A program made the translations under genes and the position numbers. Below, one piece after another: positions 21,354 through 37,554 of a stretch of DNA of 64,000 nucleotides; the first letter of the stretch is position 1; each line of letters starts with the position of its first letter. This stretch comes from a virus. The notes under the pieces were generated by a model. It had not been told where the DNA came from, did no database searches, and saw only the letters and a list, made by a program, of their open reading frames with translations. The stretch lies in IMG/VR virus record IMGVR_UViG_3300046332_000238, positions 32,001-96,000 of that record. One strand, 5' to 3'.

Positions 21354-21362
21354 GGATATATT

Positions 21363-21701
21363 ATGTTAGAATTGTATCGTGGTTTGGTTGATATTATCGT
21401 TTCAAATTGCCGTGTACTAGAAGCAGATTTGATTCAACATATCCGCCGTGATGTAACAGCCAAAACTATTGCACCTAATACATTTGGTGTTTGTGGTTTT
21501 TGGAATTTGATGCTTGAAATAATTTTTGTAATGTTTGCAAAGATCACATTTGTTCTTGGTATTACTTTGACTAGTGTTTTGGCCATTCTATTCTTTCCAT
21601 TGAATGCTTTTATTCGTGCTTGTGCTACTGTATTCCGTACCAGTTCAGGTGAAATATATACATTGCCCGTTGAAAAAGAAACGAAACCTAAGGTGAAGTA
21701 A
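21363..21701 (+). CDS. putative membrane protein
   Basis: Long hydrophobic segment. Confidence 0.65.
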   Translation: MLELYRGLVDIIVSNCRVLEADLIQHIRRDVTAKTIAPNTFGVCGFWNLMLEIIFVMFAKITFVLGITLTSVLAILFFPLNAFIRACATVFRTSSGEIYTLPVEKETKPKVK

Positions 21702-22078
21702 TGGCCATAACTAATCCATGGAGTGTTAATGGTGTAATACAAGACGATTATTCCTCAGCTTCTAGAGGTAGAATTGCTGACTTACCATATCCTGTTGAAC
21801 ATATTATTAATGGTAAAATGTTGATTGCTTCATATTCAATCATGGAATATAAATTTAGTGATCGCATACACATTGCTGGCCAGAAACAGACTGAAGATGA
21901 GATTAAAGATGAATTGTTGATGTTGTTGGTGAATGAAATGAAGAAATCAAACTTTATTGAATACACACGACAAATAGATATATTATCAGGTGCTGTTAAT
22001 TTCAAAGCAAGAATATTTGTGACACCTAACGATCAGGTAAGACTTATAAGAGAAATAGAACAGAGGAAAACAAAATGA
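21701..22078 (+). CDS. hypothetical protein
   Basis: 125 aa; coupled start. Confidence 0.7.
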   Translation: MAITNPWSVNGVIQDDYSSASRGRIADLPYPVEHIINGKMLIASYSIMEYKFSDRIHIAGQKQTEDEIKDELLMLLVNEMKKSNFIEYTRQIDILSGAVNFKARIFVTPNDQVRLIREIEQRKTK

Positions 22079-22081
22079 AAA

Positions 22082-22741
22082 TTAATATAAAATACACCAA
22101 TTTTTATATGTCCTTCCTTTGTTAATAATTTCAGAAACACCACTTTTGTTTATATTGTAACATTTATAAAATACCCATCGAGTGCATTTTATTAATTCAC
22201 CAGTTTGTATATTGAAAAAACTATAAACTAAATTATCGAAACGTGAATTATTTTTAAAACTGTTATTTTTTAATTTGGCTTTTTCTGAACGAATTAATTT
22301 TAATTTATCCGACTTTTCTTTACCATATAATTCTTCGTATGATTTATTTTTGAATTTTTTTATTGCATTTTCTGATAATTTTTTCTTAACTTCGTTCGTG
22401 TGTGTTTTCCCGAACATACCATTTAATTCACCACACAATGTTGGACCCCTTTTTCCACCTGGAACTGTATTATAACCACCAACAATTGAATCATATTCAC
22501 TGATGAAATAAGATTCCATAACATTTAGTGTATGGTCTTTTTCTTTAGATTGATATAATACTTCCCATATAAAATTATTCCATCCATATTTTTTTATGGC
22601 ATTATAGAATTTTATATTGTTTTCTTTTTCTGATTCTCGTTTGTGGTCGGTTTTTCTTTTTGGCCAATGCGAATCAAAACCTATGTATCGTTGTTTTGTT
22701 ACAACATTGTAAGCGGAATAGATTGAATATATAGTTGACAC
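22082..22741 (-). CDS. free-standing GIY-YIG (Seg-like) endonuclease with NUMOD3-type C-terminus
   Basis: SIY...YIG, R...H, FYNAIKKYG, E...I and GYN...GG; NGMFGKTHT; GTG start. Confidence 0.9.
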   Translation of the reverse strand: MSTIYSIYSAYNVVTKQRYIGFDSHWPKRKTDHKRESEKENNIKFYNAIKKYGWNNFIWEVLYQSKEKDHTLNVMESYFISEYDSIVGGYNTVPGGKRGPTLCGELNGMFGKTHTNEVKKKLSENAIKKFKNKSYEELYGKEKSDKLKLIRSEKAKLKNNSFKNNSRFDNLVYSFFNIQTGELIKCTRWVFYKCYNINKSGVSEIINKGRTYKNWCILY

Positions 22742-22816
22742 AGCTGTGTCCTTGTGATATAATTTGACATAGAGTGAGTAGATGTTGACGCATCGTGACT
22801 CACATCCCTATTTATA
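22735..22816. promoter_or_regulatory. structured GIY-YIG leader element, copy 1
   Basis: Two hairpins; minus-strand TATAAATA at 22809-22816; plus-strand TTGACA-17-TATAAT at 22735-22763. Confidence 0.8.
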
Positions 22817-22832
22817 TATTATGGAGAGTATT

Positions 22833-23804
22833 ATGTCTCAGAAAGGTAAAAAGGTCGGAAGCTTGCGTATTGCAATTGCTTCCGACCTGTAGCTGCATTT
22901 GGAGTTTGGTGACCTTGATTTGCATAATACAGATAATGCTGATGTGCTGATTCTTGGTGGTGATATTTTTGTCGCTAACGACCTTGTGAGTCTTGAAGAT
23001 TCCATTGAAATTGCAAAACTGGTACCAACACGAGCTCGTTTTCGTGCAGAGAAATTTTTTGATTTTGTAAAACGTTGCAGTGATCGGTTCCCTAAAGTAA
23101 TTTTGATTGCTGGTAATCATGAACATTATCATGGTGAGTTTCAGGATACATACAAAACAATCAAGAAAACCTTTAAAGAATTTACCAATGTGTATGTCTT
23201 GGATAAAGAATCGGTAGAACTTGATGGCACCATTTTTGTTGGTGGTACATTGTGGACTGATATGAACAAAGAAGATCCAATGACCATTCATGCAATTTCT
23301 GGTATGATGAATGACTTTAATTGTGTAACAAATGGCATAACACACCGTAAAGTGCCACTGTATAAAAAAGATGCATCGGGTGAATACATCATTGATGATA
23401 AACGTATTGGTTACATCGTAGATGGTTTTAAAATGAAAGAAGAACCTGCTAGATTTACTCCTAACCATGCGGTGGAAGACCACAAACAATTTCTTCAATA
23501 TTTGAAACTAGTAATGGAAAATAACACAGATAAAAAACCTGTTGTTGTTTGTTCTCACCATGCACCAAGTCGTCGCAGCACACATCCAAGGTATGCAGGA
23601 CAAACCCTGATGAATGGTGGATATAGTTCTGAATTGGACGAGTTCATTATGGATAGGCCAGATATCAAACTCTGGACTCATGGACATACACATGAACCTT
23701 TTGATTATATGGTTGGTGATACTCGTATCGTTTGCAATCCTCGCGGGTATAAAAATCATGAAAAGAGTGCAGATTATTTTGAGTTAAAATTTGTTGAAAT
23801 TTAA
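22833..23804 (+). pseudogene. calcineurin-like metallophosphoesterase interrupted by an in-frame TAG at 22890
   Basis: GGAG RBS then MSQKGKKVGSLRIAIASDL*LHLEF; GGDI, AGNHE, SHHAP, HGHTH and NPRGY motifs intact downstream. Confidence 0.75.
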
Positions 23805-23813
23805 GGAGATAAA

Positions 23814-24266
23814 ATGAGTGTTACAATTAAGAATTTAGAAGCAGCATTTGCTGGTGAGAGTCAAGCACATACCAAGTACCGATATTTTGCTAAGATGGCA
23901 AGAGCACAAGGATTTGAAGATGTTGCAAAACATTTTGAACATACAGCAGAACAAGAACTACTTCATGCGTGGGGTCATTTGGAATTACTGATTGGTAAAC
24001 CAGATGTTAAACAGTGTCTTGAAATGGCCATTGAAGGTGAGACACACGAGTTCACTACAATGTATCCTACAATGCAATCAGAAGCAATTGCAGAAGGTGA
24101 TGAATTTGCTGCGAAAGAAGCAGCAGATCAAATTTTAGAAAGTAAAGAACACGCAGAACAATTTGCAACAGTTCTTGCTAAGGCAGAAAAACGTTTTAAT
24201 GCTTTGAAGAAAGTAGAACAACGTCACGCAGAAGCTTACACAAAAGTATTGGAGAATGTAAAATGA
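23814..24266 (+). CDS. rbr: rubrerythrin (ferritin-like diiron domain)
   Basis: NL.AAFAGES.A..KY, E..HA, GE..E...MYP and E.EHA motifs. Confidence 0.9.
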   Translation: MSVTIKNLEAAFAGESQAHTKYRYFAKMARAQGFEDVAKHFEHTAEQELLHAWGHLELLIGKPDVKQCLEMAIEGETHEFTTMYPTMQSEAIAEGDEFAAKEAADQILESKEHAEQFATVLAKAEKRFNALKKVEQRHAEAYTKVLENVK

Positions 24267-24397
24267 GCGAAACACATGTATGTGTAGTATGTGGTCATGA
24301 ACATGATGATCTAGTAGAGGGTGCATGGGGTACATTACCTGACGACTTTACTTGTCCTGAATGTGGTTGTGGTAAGGAAGAATACGAGTCAATTTAA
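24263..24397 (+). CDS. rubredoxin (44 aa, not in the ORF track)
   Basis: MSETHVCVVCGHEHDDLVEGAWGTLPDDFTCPECGCGKEEYESI. Confidence 0.9.
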   Translation: MSETHVCVVCGHEHDDLVEGAWGTLPDDFTCPECGCGKEEYESI

Positions 24398-24747
24398 TGT
24401 CCAAAAAATTATATCTTGTTGAAACTATTTCCACATTCCGTATTCGTTATGTGGTTGAAGCAAAAGAAGAAGGTCATGCTGAAGATGAAGTCACTATGTC
24501 TGATGCTGACTTTTATGAATTCTCACAGAAACATATTGATGAATCGATTACATCAACCCGTGAATTAAGTAGGATTGAATATCTTGATCTTTTTGATAAA
24601 GACAATGAGTATCTTTCTAAATGGGACGATGAATCTAAAATGAAGTTCATCAATAAGATTAATTATGATGAAGATGATGGTAACGTAAATCTTCCTCCTA
24701 CTGAATGTGAGTTTGATGAAATTGAAGAAGCAATGAAGAACGTATGA
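24397..24747 (+). CDS. acidic hypothetical protein
   Basis: 116 aa; coupled start. Confidence 0.75.
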   Translation: MSKKLYLVETISTFRIRYVVEAKEEGHAEDEVTMSDADFYEFSQKHIDESITSTRELSRIEYLDLFDKDNEYLSKWDDESKMKFINKINYDEDDGNVNLPPTECEFDEIEEAMKNV

Positions 24748-25592
24748 AGAAAATATTTATAACTGGTATCAATGGTTATATTGGTCAACACCTCTACCAT
24801 CTGTTAAAGGATGAGTATGAGGTGTTTGGCTTGGATATTACACCTGTTGATGATGTTAATCTTTTTCAGTCGGATATTCGACATTGGATACCAGATTATA
24901 TATTTTCTTTGGCTGATATGCCAAATGAATTCGATGCAGTCATTCATTTGGCTGCATTGATTCGTGTAAGTGAATCAGTAGTAAAACCTATTGAGTATTA
25001 TGAAACTAATATCATGGGCACCATCAATGCACTGAGTTGCATTAAGACAAAAAACTTTATTCTTGCATCTACTGGTGCAGCAGAAAACCCAATTAATCCA
25101 TATAGTATCTCGAAGTTGGCCGCAGAAAGTATTGTTAAACAGTATTGTGCCAGTAAAGATATTGACTATACTATTTTTAGATTCTATAATGTAATTGGAT
25201 CAAACGGATTCTTACCAACAAATGTTGATGGTCTGATGTATAACCTAATCAAGGCAAAAGAGACAGGTATATTTAATCTTTTTGGTCATCAATATGATAC
25301 AGAAGATGGTACAGCAATTCGGGACTATATTCATGTAATGGAAATCTGTCACGCAATTAAATTGGCAATTGAAACTCCTGCGAACACTGAGGTAGAAAAC
25401 CTGGGTACAGGCCTAGGACATTCCGTATTTGATATTGTTAATCGTTTTATGATTGTAAACAATTGTGATATTCAGGTAAACTTTAAACCTGCTCGGGCAG
25501 GTGACTTACCTGCAACAGTATTAAAAAATGTCTCGCCATACATGAAAAAATATTATACAATAGACGAAATGTTACGATTGGAGAATACATGA
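24744..25592 (+). CDS. NAD-dependent epimerase (GalE-like extended SDR)
   Basis: TGINGYIG, HLAA, YSISK, RFYNV and DGTAIRDYIHV motifs. Confidence 0.9.
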   Translation: MKKIFITGINGYIGQHLYHLLKDEYEVFGLDITPVDDVNLFQSDIRHWIPDYIFSLADMPNEFDAVIHLAALIRVSESVVKPIEYYETNIMGTINALSCIKTKNFILASTGAAENPINPYSISKLAAESIVKQYCASKDIDYTIFRFYNVIGSNGFLPTNVDGLMYNLIKAKETGIFNLFGHQYDTEDGTAIRDYIHVMEICHAIKLAIETPANTEVENLGTGLGHSVFDIVNRFMIVNNCDIQVNFKPARAGDLPATVLKNVSPYMKKYYTIDEMLRLENT

Positions 25593-25789
25593 AATATCTT
25601 ATTGGTTTTATTGGTGGTGTTTTGCTTTCAATTGGATTGGTAGCTAACGCTGGTTTCTTTGGTTCAGCAGTTGGTGGTGCTGTGGGTGGTGCAATTGGAA
25701 CATCTGGTGTTGAATCAAAAATTGATACAATTAATGCTCGTATTGAAGCATTGACAAGAGCATTGGATAGTGTTAAGGTGTGCAAATGA
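25589..25789 (+). CDS. small glycine-zipper membrane or secreted protein
   Basis: Signal-like N-terminus; GSAVGGAVGGAIG. Confidence 0.6.
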   Translation: MKYLIGFIGGVLLSIGLVANAGFFGSAVGGAVGGAIGTSGVESKIDTINARIEALTRALDSVKVCK

Positions 25790-26472
25790 AAGTAAATATC
25801 GGACCTTATACAACTTGGATAGGACCGTATCAGATTGCGGAAAAGATACTATTCTGGATGGACAAAGACAATGATGACCGAGTTCATAACTTTGGTCGTT
25901 GGTTGTCGGGTGGTAAAGAGAAAGATTCTCTGTTACAAAAATTATGTGTTTGGATTGAATCCAAGAAAAAACGTAAAATTAAAGTAGATATTCATGGTTA
26001 TGATGTGTGGAGTATGGATTCCACATTATCTCTTATCGTTCTTCCTATGTTACAAGAACTTCAAAAGGTGAAACATGGTTCACCAATGGTTGATGCAGAA
26101 GATGTTCCTGAGTTTCTTAGAATGACTGGTCATGAAGATTGGTCACACCAAATGGAATTCAAATTTGAAGATCATGAACAGTATGAAAAAGATTCATGGG
26201 AAATCAATATGCATCGTTGGGATTGGGTTCTTGAAGAATTGATTTGGACATTCAAACAATTACAACCTGATTATGATTGGGACGATATGTATCGTTCAGG
26301 TGAAATGGACATTCAATGGTTAGATGATCCAAGTAACTCCAACTACAAAATCATGTCTCACGGACCTAATCATACATATAAAGTTGATGATGAAGGTATG
26401 AAAAAACATCAAGACCGTATCAACAATGGTTTGAGATTGTTCGGTAAATATTATCAAAATCTTTGGGACTAA
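25786..26472 (+). CDS. conserved T4-like phage hypothetical protein
   Basis: D.WSMD.TL..I.LPML and G.RLFGKYYQNLWD motifs. Confidence 0.85.
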   Translation: MKVNIGPYTTWIGPYQIAEKILFWMDKDNDDRVHNFGRWLSGGKEKDSLLQKLCVWIESKKKRKIKVDIHGYDVWSMDSTLSLIVLPMLQELQKVKHGSPMVDAEDVPEFLRMTGHEDWSHQMEFKFEDHEQYEKDSWEINMHRWDWVLEELIWTFKQLQPDYDWDDMYRSGEMDIQWLDDPSNSNYKIMSHGPNHTYKVDDEGMKKHQDRINNGLRLFGKYYQNLWD

Positions 26473-26644
26473 TCATGGCAAAATTTAAACAAGTAAAACT
26501 TATATTCACCGCAGAAATTATGATGAATAGTAATGACACATTGGATGTTGAAGCATTGCAGACTGAATTGATTGATGCCCTAGATACAGTGAACAATAAT
26601 CAATTTCTTGTAGCAGAAGAACAACTTATTATTAAAGGTTAATT

Positions 26645-27118
26645 ATGACATTGAAACATCATGCAGAACGTGAATTGGATATTATTGGAATGACAGAAGA
26701 TTCTGTGGAAATGGATGCTGCGATGCGTAATCACATCCTTCATATGATTGATGAATTTTCTAAAGAAGGACATTCTGGATTCTCCGCATCATATGCTATT
26801 AGTATATTATCTAAACTTATGAGATATGAACCATTGACACCACTAACAGGTGAAGATTCCGAATGGATGGAAATTGCTAAAGAACAGACTGGTTCTAATC
26901 AAGGCACACTATACCAAAATAAACGAGCAAGTCATGTATTCAAAGATGATACTGGTGCATATGATATCAATGGCAAAGTATTTGTCGAATGGCGGCAAGA
27001 CAAAGAAACAGGTGAAGATTATTCCTCATCATATACAAGCAAAGATTCTCGTGTACCTGTAACTTTCCCATACACACCACATACAGATTATGTTAATAAA
27101 GGTTTTGTAGAAGAATGA
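26645..27118 (+). CDS. conserved phage hypothetical protein
   Basis: EGHSGFSA, PLTPLTGED.EW and QNKR.S.VFK motifs. Confidence 0.85.
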   Translation: MTLKHHAERELDIIGMTEDSVEMDAAMRNHILHMIDEFSKEGHSGFSASYAISILSKLMRYEPLTPLTGEDSEWMEIAKEQTGSNQGTLYQNKRASHVFKDDTGAYDINGKVFVEWRQDKETGEDYSSSYTSKDSRVPVTFPYTPHTDYVNKGFVEE

Positions 27119-28194
27119 TTTCTCTCATACACTTTATAAGTTCTTCCAAACTACTCAAAGAGTCCGAAAAGACGGTAGTGATGTTGGGTGGTGAAGATGA
27201 AGCACCGGAGATGGTGCGAGCACAGCGTGACTTCTATCGTTTAGAAGTTGATTATTATAGGGTAGAAGCAATCAAATTTGGTTTCTTTTGTGCCGGTGTT
27301 GTATTGAGTGCATACCCAATTTATTTGTTATGGAGATTATTTAATGGCATACTTGCTTAAAAATATTTTTGGATGGTCAAAAACTAATGGCCTAAGTATT
27401 ATGGCTAATGGTGCAATGTTTGCATTGGTTATATTGTTAATAGTACCTATGTTTGCAGTGAAAAAACCAGAAGTTGAAATGAAAGACTTCAAAGATGGCA
27501 TACAAAATCATTTGACATGGTCAATTAAGAATGAATGCTTTTTTGTTAAACCACACACAGATACCACAGTGTATCTGATCCGTGTACCTGATTGTGATAG
27601 AAAATAAGGAGAAGTTATGAGTTTATTTGTTGAAGTTACCTCGATTGAAAAACAATGTAAAGTTATTGTTAATATGGAACACATTGTAGAAATTGCACCA
27701 CTTGCTTCTGGTGGTTGTGCATTGTTTACTATTGATAGTGCAGGTGTTGGTGCAAAAGCATCGATGCGGGTATCTGATGATTACAGTCAATTTATCCAGT
27801 TTGCTGTACAACCAGTATCTGCTGAAGATATTGCAAAACGTTTTCCTAAAGTATCTACCGAAGCAGAACCTAAAGCAAAATCACCAAAGGTAGAAATTCC
27901 TAAACTATGAACGATCTCCTAACAGGGATATTTTCTTGGATTAAAGATGATTATCGGACCTACCCTTTACGTTTTCTTATTGAGCTTCTTGCTTGGGCTA
28001 TCAGCATTGGTTGTAGTCTCACTATGGCGCTCACGGTACCTAATCCTCCCCTTCTTAGTATGTACCCTGTTTGGATCATTGGTTGTTGCCTTTATGGCTG
28101 GGCTGCTTACTCTAGGAAGTCTTTTGGTATGCTTGCTAACTACCTTTTGTTGGTTACCATAGATTCCATAGGACTCCTACGAATGATTAGTTGA
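27115..28194 (+). other. four small ORFs (27115-27360, about 27344-27607, 27617-27910, 27907-28194), three membrane-associated
   Basis: Overlapping start and stop codons; hydrophobic segments. Confidence 0.7.
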
Positions 28195-28247
28195 CAATTA
28201 ACTGTGGCCATGTTATAATTGTATCTCTTATATTATGAAAGTTTCTC

Positions 28248-28847
28248 GTGAATATCTTTTATCTTGACAATGACCCAGTTAAATGTGCAGAAATGCATAA
28301 CGATAAACATTGTATCAAAATGATTCTGGAATATGCTCAACTCCTTTCCACTGCTCATCGCGTTCTTGATGGCGTTTCCACTATCGGCCTTACTAGCACC
28401 GGTCGGAAAAAAACTTCCTTCGTCCTCTCCGATGCTCGGGATGCCATTCTTTATTCTGCTACTCACATTAATCATCCGTCTGCAATTTGGGTAAGACAAT
28501 CAGATAAAAATTATGACTGGTTGTTTTCTCTGTTTCAGGCATTGATGGATGAGTACACATATCGTTATGGTAAAACCCATGCCTGTTCTAAACTTGAAAT
28601 GTCTCTTGCTAGAATACCACAAAATATTCCACAAAAACCTTTCACTGAACCAACACCTGCAATGCCGCCAGAAATAAAAGTACCAAAAGCAGGACCTCGT
28701 GGTCAATTGCATTATGATTCTATTGCTTCGTATAAGAATTACTATATACAAAGTAAAGTACACCTTGCCTCATGGAAAGGTAAAACAAATTCTCGTCCAG
28801 TTCCGCAATGGTTTCAAACTGGATTAGAAAAACTAGCAGTAATTTAA
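28248..28847 (+). CDS. DenV-related pyrimidine-dimer glycosylase family protein
   Basis: NIFYLD.DP..CA..H.DKH.IKM..E.AQLLS and H.NHP...W motifs; promoter TTGACA-17-TATAAT at 28191. Confidence 0.75.
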   Translation: MNIFYLDNDPVKCAEMHNDKHCIKMILEYAQLLSTAHRVLDGVSTIGLTSTGRKKTSFVLSDARDAILYSATHINHPSAIWVRQSDKNYDWLFSLFQALMDEYTYRYGKTHACSKLEMSLARIPQNIPQKPFTEPTPAMPPEIKVPKAGPRGQLHYDSIASYKNYYIQSKVHLASWKGKTNSRPVPQWFQTGLEKLAVI

Positions 28848-28873
28848 CTTGAACTTTATTAATAAGGAAACAC

Positions 28874-29452
28874 ATGAAATTTGTAAAAATCTTGGCAGTA
28901 GCAGCAGTAATGATGGCAAGTTCCGCGTTCGCACAGAACACTGGATATACTACGTTTGAATTCTCACAAGAAACTAAACGTGCTGATGATTCAGACAAAC
29001 TCAAGGGTGGTCTAGTCGTTGGTGTGAAAACACCACAAGGTCAAGACTACAGCGTTAAATTGGAATCGAGTCAAACTCGTGTTGGTGAAGGTTCGATTTC
29101 AACTGGTTTAGAAGTTCGTGCAAAACAAAACTTTGCAGATGTTGGTTATGGTATTAAACCATACCTTGGTGTTCGTCTAGGCGAGAAAATGACTAGTGAT
29201 GAACACTTTAGTCACTATGCAGTTGATGCTGGTGTAAAGTTTCCGATTGTCGGAAAACTTAGTGGAGATGTTGGTGTACGTTATCGTAATGCTTTCAATA
29301 CTGTAAATGCATTTGAAAGCACACGTTACCATGTTATCGCAGCATATGCATTGACTAAGACAGATTCAGTTGCAGTTCGTTACAGCCAAGCATATGGTGA
29401 TGTTGCAGAAGAAAAAGATGCATGGCGTTTGAGTTACACACATAGTTTCTAA
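28874..29452 (+). CDS. outer-membrane beta-barrel protein
   Basis: Signal peptide ending AFA; alternating beta strands; C-terminal YTHSF. Confidence 0.8.
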   Translation: MKFVKILAVAAVMMASSAFAQNTGYTTFEFSQETKRADDSDKLKGGLVVGVKTPQGQDYSVKLESSQTRVGEGSISTGLEVRAKQNFADVGYGIKPYLGVRLGEKMTSDEHFSHYAVDAGVKFPIVGKLSGDVGVRYRNAFNTVNAFESTRYHVIAAYALTKTDSVAVRYSQAYGDVAEEKDAWRLSYTHSF

Positions 29453-29470
29453 TATTAAAGTATAAAGAAG

Positions 29471-29494
29471 AACTCTCCTTCATGGAGAGTTTTT
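29471..29494 (+). terminator. intrinsic terminator
   Basis: AACTCTCC-TTCAT-GGAGAGTT followed by a T run. Confidence 0.75.
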
Positions 29495-29521
29495 CACTTC
29501 TTGATTACATAAAGAAATATA

Positions 29522-29800
29522 ATGCCAACATATCAATTCAAAAATTCAAAAACGGATGAAATTGAAGAACATCGTATGAGTTATACTGTACTCGATGAAT
29601 TCAAGACAGAAAATCCACACCTAACTATACATATTAGTGCTGAAAATATACCTATTCTTGGTGATGCCACGAGAATGAGTATTCCGGGTCACGGACAGCC
29701 ACATGCAGCATTCGAGACTGGAGTAATCCAACGAATGAAGGAAACCATTCCTGGCAACACCATGTCTGGTCATAAAACGAAAGCACCGAGAGAGTGGTAA
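29522..29800 (+). CDS. conserved T4-like protein (FmdB-like N-terminus, lacking Cys)
   Basis: MPTYQF start; typical position before phoH. Confidence 0.7.
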   Translation: MPTYQFKNSKTDEIEEHRMSYTVLDEFKTENPHLTIHISAENIPILGDATRMSIPGHGQPHAAFETGVIQRMKETIPGNTMSGHKTKAPREW

Positions 29801-29839
29801 AAACAAAAAAACTTCCTGCTTTACTAACTAGGAGTATCA

Positions 29840-30541
29840 ATGGCAACCGCAAAAAAGAAAACAGCTGCAGCTCAGGCACAAAGTCAGCACTTTTCAGTAA
29901 AAAGAATCAAACCCCTAACAGAGAACCAAGGGAAAACGTTTGATGCATATGAGGAAGGTAATCACCTAGTATTATCTGGCTCAGCAGGTTCAGGAAAATC
30001 ATTCTTAGCAATGTATCTTGGACTAAAAGATGTATTGACCGAAAATTCACATTATAACAAGATCATCATTATTCGGTCTGCGGTACCGTCAAGAGATTTA
30101 GGTTTTGTTCCAGGTTCATTGGAAGAAAAGGCCAAGATTTACCAAGAACCATACATGAACATTGTGAATGAAATCATTGGTCGTGGAGATGCATGGCATT
30201 TCTTAATGCACAAAGAGATTGTGCAGTTTCAAACAACCAGTTTTCTTCGTGGTTTAACATTCAGTGATTGTATCATTGTGTTTGATGAATTCCAATCTGC
30301 AACCTTCCATGAAATTGATACAGTATTAACCCGTGTGGGTGATAATTGTAGGTTCATGTTGTGTGGCGACTTCAACCAAAACGATCTGAATATCAAGAAA
30401 GAGAAATCTGGTTTCACTGATATCATTCGTATTCTGGATAAATTAGAAAATATCTCACACATTAAATTTGGTATTGAAGATGTGGTGCGTAGTGGTTTCG
30501 TTAAAGATTACCTACAAGCAAAGGAAAGTTTGAGTCTATAA
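29840..30541 (+). CDS. phoH: PhoH-like ATPase
   Basis: GSAGSGKS, R.LGFVPG..EEK, FLRG.TF, DEFQ, TRVG, GD..Q.D and DVVRSG motifs. Confidence 0.95.
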   Translation: MATAKKKTAAAQAQSQHFSVKRIKPLTENQGKTFDAYEEGNHLVLSGSAGSGKSFLAMYLGLKDVLTENSHYNKIIIIRSAVPSRDLGFVPGSLEEKAKIYQEPYMNIVNEIIGRGDAWHFLMHKEIVQFQTTSFLRGLTFSDCIIVFDEFQSATFHEIDTVLTRVGDNCRFMLCGDFNQNDLNIKKEKSGFTDIIRILDKLENISHIKFGIEDVVRSGFVKDYLQAKESLSL

Positions 30542-30573
30542 ATAGTAGTATCTCCAACACAAACAAATTAAAA

Positions 30574-32643
30574 ATGACAATAACATCATCAAATGTTTCA
30601 TTAGATTCTATTCAAACTGAATTTGGAGGAACCAATCCAATTGACATAACCGAATATTATGCCGGTGGATTATATGTACTGCCCGGAACTACAGGAACAA
30701 ATGGTCCAATACCAAGTTCTGGGCAAATTGGTTTGTCACAGTTTATAGGAACAGCTCAACCTGGTGTGACATGGACATACCAAGATGATTTGTCGAAAAT
30801 AGGAACCATATGGGGACAAACTGAACAAGTACTTGATATTGATTACGGTACTGTATTTTGTGCTGTTGGTGATTCAGGTAAAGTTGCTACTAGTACTGAT
30901 GGTGTTACATGGACATATCAAGATGGATTAAGATCAACATCATGGGGTTCATCGGATGCCGTTAATGCCATTGCGTGGAACGGTACTGTATTTTGTGCTG
31001 TTGGTGATTCAGGTAAAGTTGCTACTAGTACTGATGGTGTTACATGGACATATCAAGATGGATTAAGATCAACATCATGGGGCAGTACCGTCACAGTAAA
31101 TGATATTGTATGGAATGGAAACATATTCTGTGTTGTTGGATCATCCACACATGTTGCTACCAGTCCTGATGGTGTTACATGGACGTATCAATCAGGTTTA
31201 ACTTCCGTAGCCAGTGGATGGACAACACAACCAGTGCATGCCATTGCATGGAACGGTACTGTATTTTGTGTTGGTGCAGAACTTGGACATATTGCTACTA
31301 GTACTGATGGTGTTACATGGACAAATCAAAATGGACTATTGTCCACAGGATGGGGTTCAGGTACTGCGGTTTTTGCTATCACATGGAATGGAACCATATT
31401 TTGTGTTGGTGGTGCTTCCGGTAAAATAGCAACCAGCACTGATGGAGTTACATGGACAAATAGAACCAGTTTGTCTGGAACAGGATGGGGATCAGTAGAT
31501 TCTGTAAGATCAATTACCTGGAATGGAACCATATTTTGTGTTGGTGGTGATAATGGCAAAATAGCAACAGGAAATTCAACAGGATCGACTTGGACATATC
31601 GTTCTGGTCTAAAATCAACCTTCTGGTATGATAATGTTGTAAATTCTGTTTTATGGAATGGCACCAAATTCTGTGCTGTTGGTGGTGTGGCTAGAGTTGC
31701 TACCAGTACAGACGGTATTACATGGACATATCAAGACGGATTAGCTAAATTCACAACAGTATTTGCTAATACCATAAAAGATTGTGTATGGAACGGATCC
31801 AAATTTTGTATTGTTGGAGAAACCAATCATGTTGCAACAAGTGATGATGGTGTTACATGGACCTTCCAATCTGGACTCATCACAACAATGGGTGGAATAG
31901 CAAATATCTTTAATGCCATTGCGTGGAACGGTACTGTATTTTGTGCTGTTGGTGATTCAGGTAAAGTTGCTACTAGTCCTGATGGTGTTACATGGACAAA
32001 TAGAACCAGTTTGTCCGGAACAGGATATGGCACAGATAATTGTAATGATATTGTTTGGAACGGTACAAAATTTGTCGTTGTTGGTGGTGGAGGTAAAGTA
32101 GGCAATAGTACCGATGGCATCTCATGGACTTATCAGGGTCAATTAAGAACAACCACATGGAATAATTCTATATGTAATGCCATTACATGGAACGGTACAA
32201 AATTTGTTGTTGTGGGTGATGGAGGAAATGTTGCAACGGGTACAGATGGTGCTACATGGACATACCAAGGGGGTTTAAAAACGACCACATGGACTACTGG
32301 CGCAGTTTATTCAATCACATACAATTCATCAATATTTGTAATAGGTGGTGGTGCTGGAAATCTTGCTACCAGTCCTGATGGTGTTACATGGACGGATCAG
32401 AGCGGTTTAAATGCAACAGGATGGGGTGTTAGCACTGTTTGGTCAATCACATGGACGGGTAGATTATTTGTTGCTGTTGGTGACTCAGGTAAAGTTGCTA
32501 CCAGTACGGATGGTGTTACATGGACGTATCGAACAACATTAAGATCAACTGCATGGAGTACATCAACTGTTAACACGATTGTGTTGACGAATAATAAATT
32601 ACTCATCGGTGGTTTGTTAGGCAAAGTTGCTACTTCTCCTTAA
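30574..32643 (+). CDS. putative receptor-binding/adhesin protein with 14 Asp-box-like repeats of about 45 aa
   Basis: Late promoter TATAAATA at 30538; N-terminal IQTEFGG.NPI...EYY.GG...P.SG.I domain; repeated ATS.DGVTWT. Confidence 0.8.
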   Translation: MTITSSNVSLDSIQTEFGGTNPIDITEYYAGGLYVLPGTTGTNGPIPSSGQIGLSQFIGTAQPGVTWTYQDDLSKIGTIWGQTEQVLDIDYGTVFCAVGDSGKVATSTDGVTWTYQDGLRSTSWGSSDAVNAIAWNGTVFCAVGDSGKVATSTDGVTWTYQDGLRSTSWGSTVTVNDIVWNGNIFCVVGSSTHVATSPDGVTWTYQSGLTSVASGWTTQPVHAIAWNGTVFCVGAELGHIATSTDGVTWTNQNGLLSTGWGSGTAVFAITWNGTIFCVGGASGKIATSTDGVTWTNRTSLSGTGWGSVDSVRSITWNGTIFCVGGDNGKIATGNSTGSTWTYRSGLKSTFWYDNVVNSVLWNGTKFCAVGGVARVATSTDGITWTYQDGLAKFTTVFANTIKDCVWNGSKFCIVGETNHVATSDDGVTWTFQSGLITTMGGIANIFNAIAWNGTVFCAVGDSGKVATSPDGVTWTNRTSLSGTGYGTDNCNDIVWNGTKFVVVGGGGKVGNSTDGISWTYQGQLRTTTWNNSICNAITWNGTKFVVVGDGGNVATGTDGATWTYQGGLKTTTWTTGAVYSITYNSSIFVIGGGAGNLATSPDGVTWTDQSGLNATGWGVSTVWSITWTGRLFVAVGDSGKVATSTDGVTWTYRTTLRSTAWSTSTVNTIVLTNNKLLIGGLLGKVATSP

Positions 32644-32664
32644 AATAAAAGAAATGAATATACT

Positions 32665-33324
32665 ATGTTTAATTATTGCCCACCTAAAGACTTGCAAGAC
32701 CTGAAGTCACAAACCTTCCCTGATGGTAAAAGATATTATACATTGGAAGATGGCACTAAGTTGCCATCTGTTACCACTGTGCTTGGTGCCAAAAAGAAAG
32801 AGGGTATTCTTGCATGGCGTAAACGTGTGGGTGAAGAAGAAGCCAATCGTATCTCCAGACAGGCCACATCACGCGGTACGAACGTTCATACAATTTGTGA
32901 ACACTATCTCAATAACAAACCAGGTTTCTCTAAGGGCATCATGCCTGACGCTGTGGAGATGTTTAAGAGTATTCGACCAACACTAGATAAGATTAACAAC
33001 ATTCATTACCAAGAAGTTGCATTGTGGTCTAAGCAATTAGGTCTTGCTGGTCGTGTAGACTGTATTGGTGAATATGATGGTGTGTTATCTTCTATCGACT
33101 TCAAGACCTCCAAGAAAATTAAGAAACGTGAAGATATTCTGGATTACTTTTGGCAGACTACAGCATATGCGTTGATGTATGAGGAACTGGTTGGTGTTCC
33201 CATTCATCAGTTGGTTGTTATCATGGCAGTGGAGAACGAACAACCATTGGTATTCATTGAGAAAACTTCAGATCACATCCAAGGTTTGGTTGATGCAATT
33301 GCATATTACCGGAAGAATGCTTGA
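32665..33324 (+). CDS. PD-(D/E)XK exonuclease (Cas4-like phage exonuclease)
   Basis: PSVTTVL, RGT.VH, AGRVD, IDFKTS and Q..AY motifs. Confidence 0.9.
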   Translation: MFNYCPPKDLQDLKSQTFPDGKRYYTLEDGTKLPSVTTVLGAKKKEGILAWRKRVGEEEANRISRQATSRGTNVHTICEHYLNNKPGFSKGIMPDAVEMFKSIRPTLDKINNIHYQEVALWSKQLGLAGRVDCIGEYDGVLSSIDFKTSKKIKKREDILDYFWQTTAYALMYEELVGVPIHQLVVIMAVENEQPLVFIEKTSDHIQGLVDAIAYYRKNA

Positions 33325-33349
33325 CAAAGTAAAATAAATAGAGTATAAT
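33321..33349 (+). promoter_or_regulatory. consensus sigma70 promoter for the tmRNA
   Basis: TTGACA-17-TATAAT. Confidence 0.85.
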
Positions 33350-33355
33350 GTAAGT

Positions 33356-33697
33356 TAGTAAAATGGTAGTACAACTTAGTAATTGAAAGGGTGGCGACAC
33401 GCCGGGGCGGTACCGGCCCGGTCCACCATAAGGAATTTATGAACTTGAAATGGTATCAAATATTATTATGCTTAGCTGTTCCAATAAACTATTTTTATTG
33501 GTTGGTGTTACATAGATTTTTTATGATGGGCCGGAAATAGTTTCGACCGACATTTAAGTATATTATTAAGCTACTCGACACAGAGAGTCGTAAAAAGTAA
33601 AAACTAGTAAATGCAAACGATAACTCGTTCCGCCAAGTAGCCTAAAAACTACTAGCTGAGGTTTCGCAAGGTGTCCTTATAATCAAATCACCTTGCA
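33356..33697 (+). ncRNA. ssrA: circularly permuted two-piece tmRNA (acceptor piece about 33356-33428; coding piece 33528 to about 33697)
   Basis: T-arm GCCGG-GGCGGTA-CCGGC then CCGGTCC-A-CCA; 5' strand GGGCCGG at 33528 gives G3:U70; tag ANDNSFRQVA* at 33613-33645. Confidence 0.93.
33439..33540 (+). CDS. 33-aa hydrophobic peptide in the tmRNA intervening segment
   Basis: AAGGA RBS; MNLKWYQILLCLAVPINYFYWLVLHRFFMMGRK. Confidence 0.5.
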   Translation: MNLKWYQILLCLAVPINYFYWLVLHRFFMMGRK

Positions 33698-33787
33698 AGA
33701 ATCATGATTTTCTGCATTGACTTTTAAAGTTATTTTGATATATAATATGAGTTATGTCATTTCGACATAACAACACAGGAGAATTAT

Positions 33788-33862
33788 ATGAATTGGACTA
33801 CACCAGCAGCAATTGATCTACGTTTTGGTTTCGAAATTACACTTTATATCGCAAATCGTTGA
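33788..33862 (+). CDS. pqqA: PQQ precursor peptide PqqA (24 aa, not in the ORF track)
   Basis: MNWTTPAAIDLRFGFEITLYIANR with ExxxY core; AGGAG RBS; TTGACT-18-TATAAT upstream. Confidence 0.95.
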   Translation: MNWTTPAAIDLRFGFEITLYIANR

Positions 33863-33934
33863 TACATAAATAATATTATGAGTTAGAGTTCTCACTAAAA
33901 ACTCAATCACACACATACACAGTTAGGATTTAAA

Positions 33935-34219
33935 ATGTCACAACCCATGTCTCCGTTCCAGATAAGGATGGAATTGTTGAAGATGGCCAAAGAATTATTG
34001 GTCGATGACTTCAACACAAAAAAAGATGTAATTCAAGAAGTCTGGCAAACTCAAGTGGAATCTGCAAAAATTGCAGGTGCAACATCACCTCCACATCCTA
34101 CATTGCCACCATATCCCACAGAAGAAGAAATTGTAAAGAAAGCAGAAGCTCTCAATCAATTTGTTTCTCAAACCACTCCATCACCAGAAATAAAGATCAC
34201 GAAGAAATCTAATTCGTAA
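33935..34219 (+). CDS. conserved T4-like hypothetical protein
   Basis: PF.IR.ELLKMAK...YPT.EEI...A..L..FVS; late-promoter-like CATAAATA upstream. Confidence 0.8.
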   Translation: MSQPMSPFQIRMELLKMAKELLVDDFNTKKDVIQEVWQTQVESAKIAGATSPPHPTLPPYPTEEEIVKKAEALNQFVSQTTPSPEIKITKKSNS

Positions 34220-34274
34220 TTGGAGAAAAAGAGTCTAACGTATTTTCGTTAGTCTCCAATCAACAAGGAGAAGT

Positions 34275-34769
34275 ATGATGAGAATAATCTTATCCAAAGC
34301 TTTGGCCATTGCATTATTGGTCACATTAATACCACTACATTCACAAGAGCAACCACTACCTACAACCAAACAAGTTTCAATGGCCATTCAGCAAGAGATC
34401 AATTGTTTATCTGAAACAATATATTATGAAGCTGGTAATGAATCTTATGAAGGTAAGTTAGCTGTTGCTGCTGTGGTAATAAACAGGACAAAATCTAAAC
34501 TGTTTCCATCAAGTATATGTTCTGTTGTTTATCAAAAAACAGGAAATATATATCAATTTTCTTGGGTGGGAACAAAAAAATATGTCAAAAATATATATTC
34601 TTGGGAAGAATCTCAGATGGTGGCAAAAAAAGCCTTTACAGAATCCAATATACACCATACGATACAGAAATCAAATGCATTATTTTATCACAATACATCC
34701 GTTGATCCAAAGTGGAAATTAAAATTCATTGTAAAAATAGGAAATCATTTATTTTATTCCAAAACTTGA
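34275..34769 (+). CDS. SleB/CwlJ-like cell wall hydrolase
   Basis: CL...IYYEA..E...G..AVA.V..NR, QFSW and IGNH.FY motifs. Confidence 0.9.
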   Translation: MMRIILSKALAIALLVTLIPLHSQEQPLPTTKQVSMAIQQEINCLSETIYYEAGNESYEGKLAVAAVVINRTKSKLFPSSICSVVYQKTGNIYQFSWVGTKKYVKNIYSWEESQMVAKKAFTESNIHHTIQKSNALFYHNTSVDPKWKLKFIVKIGNHLFYSKT

Positions 34770-34918
34770 CAATACCAACCTTTATAAATTTTTGAACTAA
34801 CTGATCCGTGATATCCAGAAACAACTTTTTTTACAGTAGAAGAACCTATATAAAACATAGGTAATTTATTACCTGAATATATAGTTAAATATGTACAGAA
34901 AATATTTGTACTTGACAT
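34754..34918 (-). pseudogene. truncated GIY-YIG-like nuclease (54 aa, N-terminal fragment)
   Basis: MSSTNIFCTYLTIYSGNKLPMFYIGSS...GYHGSV then stop; behind leader copy 2. Confidence 0.7.
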
Positions 34919-34991
34919 AGCTGTGTCCTTGTGTTATGATTTGACATAGAGTAGGTGGGTATTACAGTACCGTGACCTACACCTATTTATA
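34912..34991. promoter_or_regulatory. structured GIY-YIG leader element, copy 2
   Basis: Same architecture as copy 1; minus TATAAATA at 34984-34991; plus TTGACA-17-TATGAT. Confidence 0.8.
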
Positions 34992-35023
34992 TAACAAATT
35001 TAAACTATAATGTGAAAATCATA

Positions 35024-35245
35024 ATGCCTACAAAGAATGAGATTAGTGAATTTAGTGATACGATTGAAGAAATAACCAGTCAATTAAAGTGTACTCGATT
35101 GGATGCAATACTTCATCATTGTGAACAGACAGGTATGGAACTTGATGTGGCATCAACGTTGATTTCTTCTTCATTGAAATGTAAGATCGAAGAAGAATCA
35201 CAAGAACTGAACCTGTTGAAGAAGAAATCTAGACTGATGTTTTAA
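35024..35245 (+). CDS. 33: late transcription co-activator gp33
   Basis: FS..IE......LDAILH.C....E......I...LK.KI..E...LNLL; synteny with genes 59 and 32. Confidence 0.85.
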   Translation: MPTKNEISEFSDTIEEITSQLKCTRLDAILHHCEQTGMELDVASTLISSSLKCKIEEESQELNLLKKKSRLMF

Positions 35246-35837
35246 AATCTGAATTTTGTTTTAGTTGTTTGCTTATCCAAGATGCACTTTTATTGTAATA
35301 AGAAGCAGCTTCACCACATGAATTGAATGTACCATCAGGAGTTATTATTTTTTTATGCAAATAATTAGAATCTCGACTTCTGGCAGATTTTGACATGACT
35401 TTACGGCTTTCATCTGTGTGTTTTCGGCCATACATTGGATGGTTGGTTTTATCACAATAACGTTTTTTTGCTTGAGATGAAATATTATTGTTGTGTTCTG
35501 TGGAGTAACAATTTGTTTTACCTTTATTCCATGGTGCGAATCCAATGCGTCCTTCACCACCAGTGGTTGAATTGTATCCAGATTTAAAAGAATTATATTC
35601 AGTTATAAAATGAGATTCCATAACATTTAATGTATAATCGAGGTCTTTTGATTGATATAAAAGGTACCATTCGAAATTTTCCCAACCATGTTTACAAATT
35701 GCACGATAAAATTTAAAATTATATTTTTTATATTTGGCTTTGTGTGAATTTTTTCTTGCTGGCCATTTAGAATCAAAACCAATATATACTTTGTTATTGA
35801 TTTTATTGACACATTTGTAAATTGAATAAATAGACAT
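35229..35837 (-). CDS. free-standing GIY-YIG (Seg-like) endonuclease with NUMOD3
   Basis: SIYK...KVYIG, FYRAI.K.G, GYN.T.GGEG and HPMYGRKHTDE motifs. Confidence 0.9.
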   Translation of the reverse strand: MSIYSIYKCVNKINNKVYIGFDSKWPARKNSHKAKYKKYNFKFYRAICKHGWENFEWYLLYQSKDLDYTLNVMESHFITEYNSFKSGYNSTTGGEGRIGFAPWNKGKTNCYSTEHNNNISSQAKKRYCDKTNHPMYGRKHTDESRKVMSKSARSRDSNYLHKKIITPDGTFNSCGEAASYYNKSASWISKQLKQNSDFKTSV

Positions 35838-35903
35838 GCTGGCATTCTCCTAAAATGTTAGAGTATGTGCGGATTGCAGTCCGGCGACATACAATTATTT
35901 AGG
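35838..35903. promoter_or_regulatory. structured GIY-YIG leader element, copy 3
   Basis: Same two hairpins with compensatory changes; minus-strand CCTAAATA late-like promoter. Confidence 0.75.
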
Positions 35904-35910
35904 CACATAT

Positions 35911-36516
35911 ATGACAGAAACCACTGGGTTTGAAGCTTTTTGTTTATTCCACAGTTTAAAATTGCACTTTACTGGTGATTATGATTATGTGAAATACCAT
36001 GGTAAGACTAATGTTTCTAAAGACACCTTTGCAAACAGGAAAGACAAGTACACTTTCTACAAATTGTCACGCAAATATAATCTAGAGAATTTAAAAGACT
36101 TCTATATTGCAAACTTTTTGGAGAAAGATGTAAGTTGGATCGGTGATATCTCCAGTGTTGAAGGTGAAGAAAACCTCAAGAAGTGGCAGAAGCGTAGTCA
36201 GAGTCTATCATATAGATTCGAACAGGACGTTCTTGGTGTATTAAACAATATCAATTCACCTAATGAGATGTTGGTTGTGAATGATGGACAACATCCACTT
36301 CTATTGAATGAGGTAATGCAAGGAACTATTGCCATAGAAACACTGGTGATAATGAATGATATTATGAACTTCTTTCCTATGTGGAATAAGAAAATCAATG
36401 ATACGATTATCTGGCCTGCATTTAAGAAGAAGTGTGAAAAGTACCTGCCGTTCTTACACTATGATAAGAACAAATTTAAAGGTATATTAAAAGAATGTCT
36501 GGCAGAGTACGCCTAA
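35911..36516 (+). CDS. 59: helicase loader gp59
   Basis: LKLHFT.DYDY.KY.GK, F..RKD.Y.F.KLS and I.IETL motifs; synteny. Confidence 0.9.
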   Translation: MTETTGFEAFCLFHSLKLHFTGDYDYVKYHGKTNVSKDTFANRKDKYTFYKLSRKYNLENLKDFYIANFLEKDVSWIGDISSVEGEENLKKWQKRSQSLSYRFEQDVLGVLNNINSPNEMLVVNDGQHPLLLNEVMQGTIAIETLVIMNDIMNFFPMWNKKINDTIIWPAFKKKCEKYLPFLHYDKNKFKGILKECLAEYA

Positions 36517-36617
36517 ATATGTTGACACAGGTGAATGCTTGTGTTATACTAGTAGTTGATTATGCAATATGTGAAATAATCCGTTTTATATTCCGTTAAT
36601 ACGAAAGGCAACAAATT

Positions 36618-37526
36618 ATGGCAATTGATTTTTCAAAACTCAAAACATCTTCAGGTAATCTAGACAAACTCACCAAAGCAATCGAAGCACTAAACAGTTC
36701 TTCCGATGGCAACGACAGCAAAGAAAAATTCTGGCGTCCCGAAGTAGATAAGTCTGGCAATGGCATGGCAACAATCCGATTCCTCCCTGCACCTGGTGCT
36801 GATGGTGACGATGGTCTGCCTTGGGTTAAAATCTTCTCACATGGTTTCCAAGGTCCAGGTGGATGGTTGATTGATAACTGTCTGACTACCAAGAACCAAC
36901 AATGTCCAGTATGTGAACACAATTCAACATTGTGGAATTCTGGCATCGAAGCAAATAAAGAAATCGTCCGTAAGCAAAAACGTAAACTTAATTACATTGC
37001 TAACGTGTACATCGTTTCTGATCCTAAGCATCCAGAGAATGAAGGCAAAGTATTCTTGTTCAAATTTGGTAAAAAGATTTTTGACAAGATTAACGAAGCA
37101 ATGAATCCACAGTTCGCTGATGAAGAAGCAATCAATCCATTTGATATGTGGAAAGGTGCTAACTTCAAACTGAAGATTCGTAAAGTTGAGGGTTATCAGA
37201 ACTATGATAAGTCTGAATTTGAATCTGCATCACCATTGAATAGTGATGATGACGAACTGGAAGCAATCTGGAAGATGGAACATTCTCTGTCAGACTTGGT
37301 TGGCGACAAAGAATTTAAATCATATGATGACCTAAAAGGTCGTTTGGATAAAGTTCTTGGTTTGAATGGTGCAGTTATTGCACCAAAGACCACTGTTGAA
37401 CAGATCAAGGAAGATAACCGTGTAATCAGAGACAATCCAGCAGCTAAACCTGTTGTGTCTCGCGCACCGGAAGTCACTGAAGATGATGACGATATGGCAT
37501 ATTTCTCAAAACTTGCCGAAGATTAA
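36618..37526 (+). CDS. 32: single-stranded DNA-binding protein gp32
   Basis: DKSGNG.A.IRFLP, HGFQ..GGW, CPVC, GANFKLK, NYDKSEF and acidic tail; promoter TTGACA-17-TATACT at 36522. Confidence 0.97.
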   Translation: MAIDFSKLKTSSGNLDKLTKAIEALNSSSDGNDSKEKFWRPEVDKSGNGMATIRFLPAPGADGDDGLPWVKIFSHGFQGPGGWLIDNCLTTKNQQCPVCEHNSTLWNSGIEANKEIVRKQKRKLNYIANVYIVSDPKHPENEGKVFLFKFGKKIFDKINEAMNPQFADEEAINPFDMWKGANFKLKIRKVEGYQNYDKSEFESASPLNSDDDELEAIWKMEHSLSDLVGDKEFKSYDDLKGRLDKVLGLNGAVIAPKTTVEQIKEDNRVIRDNPAAKPVVSRAPEVTEDDDDMAYFSKLAED

Positions 37527-37554
37527 ACTATACTCCTTATCAAAGTAAGTTTAG

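Follow-up and report, generated by a model that had tools for sequence, protein, structure and literature searches.

What is known of the taming of free-standing homing endonucleases in phages comes from only a few T-even examples, each a sense-strand hairpin. For I-TevI, I-TevII, I-TevIII, segB and mobE of the T-even and Aeh1 systems, the hairpin forms on the sense mRNA and has the late promoter inside it, so that late transcripts escape (PMC2988022). Here we describe an element of two hairpins (A and B) that occurs three times in a 64,000-nucleotide stretch of viral DNA, positions 32,001 to 96,000 of IMG/VR record IMGVR_UViG_3300046332_000238 (the window). Each copy precedes a minus-strand homing nuclease gene, or the remnant of one, and folds on the strand opposite the nuclease mRNA. 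We propose that it is a portable control cassette of about 90 bp, from which a structured cis-antisense RNA would cover the nuclease 5' untranslated region (UTR) and restrain the nuclease, a reading to which we give about an even chance. Judged from sequence, what would be new is the use of a portable, covarying cassette to place homing endonucleases under cis-antisense control.

The cassette shares with the T-even and Aeh1 systems a late promoter of the nuclease's own, an RNA structure at the ribosome-binding site (RBS) and the need to limit the nuclease. However, its fold lies on the antisense strand, its late promoter lies beyond hairpin B at a distance of 3–5 nt, well away from hairpin A, and a second promoter box faces the first. 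In ocean and lake metagenomes, Dassa et al. (2009, PMC2677866) described conserved 5' UTR hairpins, accompanied by TATAAATA, ahead of the free-standing endonucleases of 'fractured genes'. The loci presented there are phage-like, include gp41, polymerase and nrd, and carry paired motifs and a late box upstream of GIY-YIG and other open reading frames (ORFs); in one of them the hairpin was kept after endonuclease loss, as in our copy 2 (PMC2677866). The authors treat these hairpins as sense-strand translational structures and report no strand asymmetry, second promoter or second hairpin. The hairpin of Dassa et al. may be part of the cassette described here.

The Kyanoviridae offer a precedent for the proposed control: cyanophage S-PM2 is described as having an antisense RNA, CfrI, opposite a homing endonuclease gene (Millard et al. 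2010, cited in PMC2984593). As summarised there, CfrI is about 225 nt and links psbA to F-CphI; our cassette model R2 has no match in S-PM2 at E up to 1, and none in Synechococcus phage B23, HTVC008M or Melnitz. CfrI alone is listed in connection with a homing endonuclease in a 2025 review of phage small RNAs. PeSLs (promoter-early stem-loops, RB49/phi1-type) resemble the cassette as repeated units of sigma-70 promoter and stem-loop in T4-type genomes that are associated with gene shuffling, but their stem-loop is a terminator with a G/C run, located upstream of the promoter, and they flank ORFans (PMC2839356, PMC4122927). In the cassette, in contrast, the hairpin is downstream and covarying, has neither a G/C-run stem nor a direct U tract, and heads a nuclease gene; the consensus sigma-70 promoter of PeSLs is present in copies 1 and 2 and absent from copy 3 and most of the family.

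Cis-antisense controls include RNA-OUT/RNA-IN of IS10/Tn10, sar of P22 and CopA/CopT of R1. As in the IS10 RNA-OUT type, the cassette concerns a selfish element's gene, and the 5' end of its mRNA, RBS included, would be overlapped by a short structured RNA from a facing promoter at the very start of the gene, with bulged stem-loops and complementary loops. The conserved stable fold is that of the predicted antisense RNA rather than the mRNA, and the predicted overlap covers the RBS, whose complement lies in loop A. There is no relationship of sequence or fold to IS10: the cassette has two hairpins instead of one and late-type promoters, so that both RNAs would be late; a homing endonuclease rather than a transposase would be regulated; and its transcript and repression are predicted. 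A cmscan of positions 20000–38000 against Rfam 15, at E up to 1, gave no match at any of the three copies. Neither the window region nor copy 3 has a DNA match in the phage isolate collection, and isolate homologues of the nucleases have at most 35% identity.

Structure and distribution of the cassette

On the plus strand each copy consists of hairpin A followed by hairpin B (Table 1). The copies lie where the first-pass annotation had placed them, with stem A of copy 1 starting at 22744, one base to the right of 22743. Loop A contains the complement of the nuclease RBS plus a -10 element in copy 1, and CTCCT, the complement of the nuclease RBS, in copy 3; the left halves of copies 1 and 2 are near-identical. 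Following each copy, the plus strand reads TATTTATA or TATTTAGG, and the minus-strand reading of these is the late-promoter box that had been noted before each nuclease gene, TATAAATA in copies 1 and 2 and CCTAAATA in copy 3.

The compensatory changes claimed for stem B are borne out, since all ten pairs form in each copy and six pairs are altered on both sides. The covariation score of the three copies is reached by none of 500 shuffles, and slid controls are 20–47% paired. Stem A has G-U pairs on the plus strand that become A-C if read on the mRNA strand, as annotated. Two features of stem B had been described less aptly: the supposed 1x3 internal loop is better seen as an R-Y pair between two bulged G residues (G-C 31, A-U 15, G-U 17, A-C 0), and the supposed hexaloop is a tetraloop closed by a U-G pair. 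Both pairs are part of the RNAalifold consensus of 63 main-form cassettes, which also recovers both hairpins.

A covariance model built from the three copies finds these and no others, either in the window or across the 104.7-kb contig that contains it; a generic hairpin scan was too unspecific to be useful (749 matches). We describe the family from a search pattern consisting of the 17 bases that all three copies have in common. Scanning viral contigs with it yielded at least 119 cassette loci, at least 91 of which are distinct after removal of duplicates. Stem B is fully paired in all 120 pattern matches listed, and its sequence takes many forms. The same pattern was applied, as a control, to 596 Gb of bacterial and archaeal genomes and gave 13 matches, of which eight are unpaired chance matches and five are complete cassettes located on metagenome-assembled contigs. 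Complete cassettes L157, L164, L165 and L166 are on contigs binned as Luteolibacter, Nitrosomonadales, Bacteroides and Chitinophagales metagenome-assembled genomes; the cassettes in such bins are most likely on mis-binned phage contigs.

Over the 20 pairs of 63 non-redundant cassettes, 99.3% of cells are paired, compared with 81% in shuffled and 30–49% in slid alignments, and cells with double changes number 249 versus 63 in shuffles. Across the family stem A has eight pairs, with CTG/TAG constant and five pairs covarying. In four large or complete genomes of 175–259 kb, a model search found five to eight copies apiece, on both strands.

The ORFs behind the cassette match GIY-YIG (14), HNH (9) and HNH_3 (9) in Pfam, with NUMOD3 in 31, and most belong to homing endonuclease families in PHROG. 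On the opposite side the neighbours are T4 core genes (gp44, gp41, gp43, gp23, gp47, gp59 and gp17). The ORFs are thus free-standing homing endonuclease genes next to conserved targets. One and the same cassette heads GIY-YIG, HNH and HNH_3 genes in at least 91 distinct loci, which upholds the earlier proposal of a portable module of mobile nuclease genes. The motif is not restricted to GIY-YIG genes, as had been thought, and its tie to antisense-oriented genes is not general: about one third of cassettes have a co-oriented neighbour.

Strand of the conserved fold

The fold belongs to the plus strand, opposite the nuclease mRNA, which makes 'leader' the wrong term for the folded strand. When the same alignment columns of the 63 cassettes are read on either strand, 99.3% of cells are paired on the plus strand and 84.2% on the nuclease-mRNA strand. 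Among variable pairs, the cells that are not Watson-Crick comprise 68 G-U and three A-C as read on the plus strand. Mean folding energy is -21.6 kcal/mol for the plus strand versus -14.4 kcal/mol for the nuclease strand, and the plus strand is the more stable in 63 of 63 cassettes. The analysis was repeated on 28 copies found by the model in the four large genomes, 23 of them outside the search pattern, and the plus strand was again more stable except in two decayed copies without an ORF. In the 21 distinct copies that do not fit the pattern there are 51 G-U and eight A-C.

On the sense strand, stem A has at least one constant A-C mismatch and often two more, and the RBS is mostly in the loop. 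With the predicted 5' ends of copy 3, the minimum-energy fold of the nuclease leader lacks the two hairpins, whereas the plus-strand RNA forms both. The plus-strand bias is found in all 39 cassettes with a plus-strand right-hand neighbour and equally in all 24 with a minus-strand one; therefore the fold serves the cassette and not a particular neighbour. Of the four functions that the first-pass annotation had offered, an antisense silencer fits best. The strand asymmetry disfavours a translational operator acting on the mRNA of the nuclease, and the sharing of the cassette by unrelated nuclease families makes a nuclease-bound RNA unlikely.

Candidate promoter boxes flanking the hairpins

Boxes of the TATAAATA type are enriched before ORF starts in this contig. 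On the opposite side of the cassette, nearly all proteins start M-x-I-Y, even those of the HNH type, for which a GIY motif serves no purpose. On the plus strand the codons concerned give ATAAATA-NN-CAT, after which come a G and stem A. Codon 2 ends in T in 50 of 50 ORFs while the residue varies among S, I, N, T, D, Y and C; Ile is encoded by ATT in 76% of cases in the box versus 41% elsewhere in the same ORFs, and Tyr by TAT in 92% versus a background of 71%. This bias at codons 2–4 indicates that the plus-strand box is conserved at the nucleotide level, beyond coding need.

A variant found in one complete 210-kb genome (L147–L151) has a start codon displaced inward by about 9 nt, so that it lies within the 5' arm of stem A, and its proteins start MSSTSIY or MTSTNIY, with I-Y at residues 6–7. 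The spacing from box to stem A is unchanged, so the box tracks the RNA structure and not the AUG. These members also have a long loop A and a junction of TAGGGC or TAGAGC in place of TAGAGT.

The late-promoter consensus of Kyanoviridae is NATAAATA (PMC2984593), and late promoters of T4 consist of a -10-like element alone (PMC7892883). The plus-strand box of copy 3, AATAAATA, fits NATAAATA. Ten of the 20 plus-strand NATAAATA boxes in the contig are at most 80 nt upstream of an ORF start, compared with about 7% expected. T4 late transcription starts about 6 nt after the box. With that distance, the plus-strand RNA would start from the G before hairpin A (G 35838 in copy 3, one base before the hairpin), and the nuclease mRNA at hairpin B or slightly within it; the predicted transcripts would therefore overlap by exactly the nuclease 5' UTR, RBS included. 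The facing boxes are both conserved and keep a fixed spacing to the hairpins, and we infer that the plus-strand box initiates transcription.

Two other promoter types, MotA-type middle and sigma-70, were considered by eye for copy 3 and rejected: the spacing is unfit, and no sigma-70 match of at least 9/12 is listed there.

A sigma-70 subfamily

About 12 distinct members, copies 1 and 2 among them, form a subfamily whose loop A is 12–18 nt (15 in copies 1 and 2) rather than the 7 nt of the main form. This loop always carries TG-n-TAnnnT, 17–18 bp past TTGACA. In copies 1 and 2 the -35 element is made by the first codons of the nuclease (ATG/GTG TCA A), overlapping the start codon in copy 1, the 5' arm of stem A occupies the spacer, the -10 element is in loop A, and the predicted start, near 22770 in copy 1 and near 34947 in copy 2, falls in the 3' arm of stem A. 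A sigma-70 transcript would therefore begin with hairpin B. The first-pass annotation mentions neither these promoters nor the late-type box in codons 2–4 of copy 3 and the main family. A weaker ATATATA box is present upstream in copy 1 and in most of the subfamily, and not in copy 2.

The next gene starts 30–44 nt downstream: a phosphoesterase gene at 22833 after copy 1 and gp33 after copy 2. The sigma-70 promoters of these two copies probably initiate transcription, and the subfamily cassette may also give the downstream phage gene an early, host-type promoter. A requirement of gp33 is that it be expressed before late transcription. At copy 2, where the nuclease has been lost and the cassette kept before gp33, the arrangement looks like capture by the phage.

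Proposed mechanism and alternatives

We suggest the following mechanism for the cassette. A late promoter of the nuclease strand, either TATAAATA or CTAAATA, would start an mRNA at or just inside hairpin B that runs through the RBS to the start codon. On the opposite strand, a NATAAATA box in nuclease codons 2–4, located 5 nt before the G that precedes hairpin A, would direct a transcript fully complementary to the nuclease 5' UTR; a box in this place would be the reason why the proteins begin M-x-I-Y. In the plus-strand RNA, hairpin A would have 8 bp and a loop complementary to the RBS, and hairpin B 12 bp and two bulged G residues. This compact structured RNA would meet a weakly folded nuclease leader, with loop-loop contacts first, and pairing would block the RBS or expose the duplex to RNase III, lowering nuclease translation, mRNA stability or both. 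The facing promoters are about 75 bp apart, and interference between them is possible. In copies 1 and 2, the outward sigma-70 promoter would give the next gene (phosphoesterase or gp33) an early transcript starting with hairpin B. Firing of the plus-strand promoters, RNA accumulation and repression are predicted; what the sequences establish is the fold, its strand, its portability and the conservation of both boxes.

Several points weigh against cis-antisense control. The promoters and the antisense RNA are predictions from sequence. The plus-strand box overlaps codons, about one fifth of cassettes carry the weaker ATATATA form, and copy 2 is without a plus-strand late-type box. Stem A would be absent from the sigma-70 transcript of copies 1 and 2 yet covaries in the subfamily, so that another transcript would be needed. 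No clear 3' end is marked, and the stretch past hairpin B is only moderately U-rich. Both RNAs would be made late, so the antisense RNA could only attenuate expression, not time it. As to the strand and covariation statistics, the 17-base pattern makes five stem B pairs and the closing U-G pair invariant by ascertainment, and the replicate alignment was fitted to a model derived from plus-strand-biased sequences, and leans toward that strand.

An alternative is that the element is an outward promoter (late-type, or sigma-70 in copies 1 and 2) and 5' leader that restores expression of the neighbour gene cut off by nuclease insertion, the hairpins acting as a stabiliser or insulator with no role in nuclease control. 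We regard this as rather unlikely. It fits the proximity of the next plus-strand gene, 18–44 nt past hairpin B in copies 1–3, the RBS and ATG found downstream in every member of the sigma-70 subfamily but L094, and the retention of the copy 2 cassette before gp33 despite nuclease loss. Hairpin A lies one base past the predicted start, a position typical of 5' stabilisers; such hairpins at transcript starts were reportedly described by Emory, Bouvet and Belasco in 1992. There is also a precedent in the seg and mob genes of T4, which contain promoters for their downstream neighbours (PMC2988022). However, the plus-strand fold is kept equally well in the 24 cassettes whose right neighbour is on the opposite strand, and the conservation of bulges and loop ends exceeds what a generic stabiliser needs. 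The two roles are compatible, and in copies 1 and 2 service to the neighbour is likely a second use of the same RNA.

An ordinary sense-strand leader, in which the hairpins mask or stabilise the nuclease mRNA as for I-TevI, segB and Aeh1 mobE, is improbable. The order of elements on the nuclease strand is right for it (late promoter, hairpins, RBS, start codon), hairpin control of phage homing endonucleases has been published (PMC2988022, and PMC2677866 for the hairpins of 'fractured genes'), and the plus-strand GIY-YIG gene at 58698 of the same phage has such a masking hairpin. However, the exceptions to Watson-Crick pairing are nearly all plus-strand G-U, that is, A-C mismatches in the mRNA, and the sense fold is the weaker in all 63 cassettes. 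The late promoter is outside the hairpins rather than within them, its start would fall 0–2 nt inside hairpin B', and the copy 3 leader with its predicted 5' end lacks the two hairpins in its minimum-energy fold.

Very unlikely is a recombination module, in which the 90 bp or so are a homology patch or single-stranded DNA structure for nuclease swapping, as proposed for PeSLs (PMC2839356): it would account for one cassette before unrelated nuclease families, for near-identical left halves in copies 1 and 2 beside unrelated nucleases, and for metagenome contigs that end exactly at motif edges, but covariation reflects selection on pairing and not on sequence identity, the stem differences between copies cut the usable homology, and a strand-specific G-U bias is unexpected for duplex homology. 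Exchange of nucleases is probably a by-product of the cassette rather than its function.

Two further candidates were tried and rejected. Hairpin B as an intrinsic terminator finds no counterpart in the terminator scan, which lists none at any copy, and a nuclease autoregulatory operator of the I-TevI type does not agree with a cassette that is shared by unrelated nuclease families and in which pairing, not sequence, is conserved.

A wider form of the cis-antisense proposal, which we put forward tentatively and hold to be clearly less probable than not, is that the cassettes represent a widespread, previously undescribed family of structured late antisense RNAs, transcribed from a promoter in the first nuclease codons, a plug-in governor for homing endonucleases of any catalytic family in aquatic T4-type phages, maybe with copy-number control in trans comparable to the multicopy inhibition of IS10 and with the leader function for neighbours. 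Action in trans would be possible because all three to eight cassettes of a genome share loop and junction sequences. If cis-antisense control is correct, it would be a general, testable solution used across many unrelated nuclease genes, with the fold selected on the opposite strand; it would impose an overlapping coding and regulatory constraint that accounts for the M-x-I-Y starts, and it would bring a sizeable RNA family to the very few antisense RNAs known from phages. In the sigma-70 variant and the orphan cassette ahead of gp33 we would then see phage takeover of a selfish cassette. For annotation, the cassette would be a marker of such nuclease genes and their remnants.

Genomic setting

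Table 1. Positions of cassette components and adjoining genes in the window
Feature	Position	Strand	Description
Copy 1 nuclease	22082-22741	-	GIY-YIG type, 219 aa; GTG start 22741-22739; PHROG homing endonuclease families, E 7e-22
Copy 1 sigma-70 promoter	22735-22763	+	TTGACA 22735-22740, 17 bp, TG-extended TATAAT 22758-22763; 12/12 consensus
Copy 1 hairpin A	22744-22750 / 22766-22772	+	CTGTGTC/GACATAG, 15-nt loop
Copy 1 hairpin B	22774-22803	+	outer GTGAGT/ACTCAC, inner GATG/CATC
Copy 1 late-promoter box	22816-22809	-	TATAAATA; points to nuclease, 5 nt before hairpin B
Copy 2 nuclease remnant	34754-34918	-	54 codons, GIY-YIG-like N-terminus, then in-frame stops
Copy 2 sigma-70 promoter	34912-34940	+	TTGACA, 17 bp, TG-extended TATGAT
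Copy 2 hairpin A	34921-34927 / 34943-34949	+	CTGTGTC/GACATAG
Copy 2 hairpin B	34951-34980	+	outer GTAGGT/ACCTAC, inner GGTA/TACC
Copy 2 late-promoter box	34991-34984	-	TATAAATA; 3 nt before hairpin B
gp33 (late co-activator)	35012-35245		start 35012/35024; Pfam Trans_coact
Copy 3 nuclease	35229-35837	-	GIY-YIG + NUMOD3, 202 aa; starts M-S-I-Y
Copy 3 late-type box	35825-35832	+	AATAAATA; nuclease codons 2-4, outward; predicted start G 35838
Copy 3 hairpin A	35839-35846 / 35854-35861	+	CTGGCATT / AATGTTAG, 7-nt loop
Copy 3 hairpin B	35863-35892	+	outer GTATGT/ACATAC, inner CGGA/TCCG
Copy 3 late-type box	35903-35896	-	CCTAAATA; points to nuclease, 3 nt before hairpin B
gp59 (helicase loader)	35911-36516		

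The 104.7-kb contig is from a T4-type phage and is estimated to be 63% complete; its T4-type genes include rIIA, baseplate gp6 and gp48-like genes, gp33 and gp59. Among cultured phages this one is closest to Pelagibacter phage HTVC008M and Methylophilales phage Melnitz (gp6 about 38% identity), both filed under Kyanoviridae. All 24 sequencing runs that contain positions 34600–36200 are freshwater DNA metagenomes, and the cassette carriers are a clade of uncultured freshwater T4-type phages. Contigs from other freshwater runs stop or diverge at 22770, 22804, 22816 and 34991, the edges of hairpin B or of the cassette, as expected of a repeat common to co-occurring phages. No cassette-free variant was seen among contigs from four runs over 21500–37000, none of which spans a nuclease cassette.

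The nucleases of copies 1 and 3 are similar, as had been noted, with 41% identity; the Pfam GIY-YIG match of the copy 1 nuclease is weak. The ORF at copy 2 is indeed unrelated to the copy 1 nuclease but is only a 54-codon remnant where a nuclease had been assumed. It matches positions 24–68 of the 214 in PHROG 10820, and the N-terminus of a full-length 202-aa nuclease in L094 shares 63% identity with it.

The motif is absent from the plus-strand nuclease genes of the contig. One of these, the GIY-YIG gene at 58698 (58669–59387, Pfam 35.7 bits), has a leader with TATAAATA followed by a hairpin, CTCCTAT/ATAGGAG, that pairs the RBS. This masking hairpin is of the I-TevI/mobE type, so that one phage would have two kinds of nuclease control. 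Two nuclease-like fragments are without a cassette: the DNA-binding part of a homing endonuclease family with an internal TGA at 42872–43240 (plus strand) and, outside the window at contig bases 22717–23028, a 138-aa GIY-YIG N-terminal piece.

The plus-strand metallophosphoesterase gene after copy 1 (22833–23804) has an in-frame TAG at 22890–22892, in its first metal-binding motif (…IAIASDL*LHLEFGD…), which could reflect a broken gene, a sequencing error or read-through. A tmRNA-like gene is located at 33307–33704 on the plus strand and scores 99 bits as a permuted tmRNA (gathering score 47) and 73 bits as a beta-proteobacterial tmRNA. Directly before it is a sigma-70 promoter with 12/12 consensus positions (33321–33349, plus strand), and near-consensus sigma-70 promoters also occur on the plus strand at 36522–36550 and 28191–28219. 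The promoter at 36522 has about 21 of 29 bases in common with that of copies 1 and 2 (TTGACACAG.TG…CTTGTGTTATA.T) and no hairpin B downstream; it is either the general early-promoter type of this phage or a relic of the cassette.

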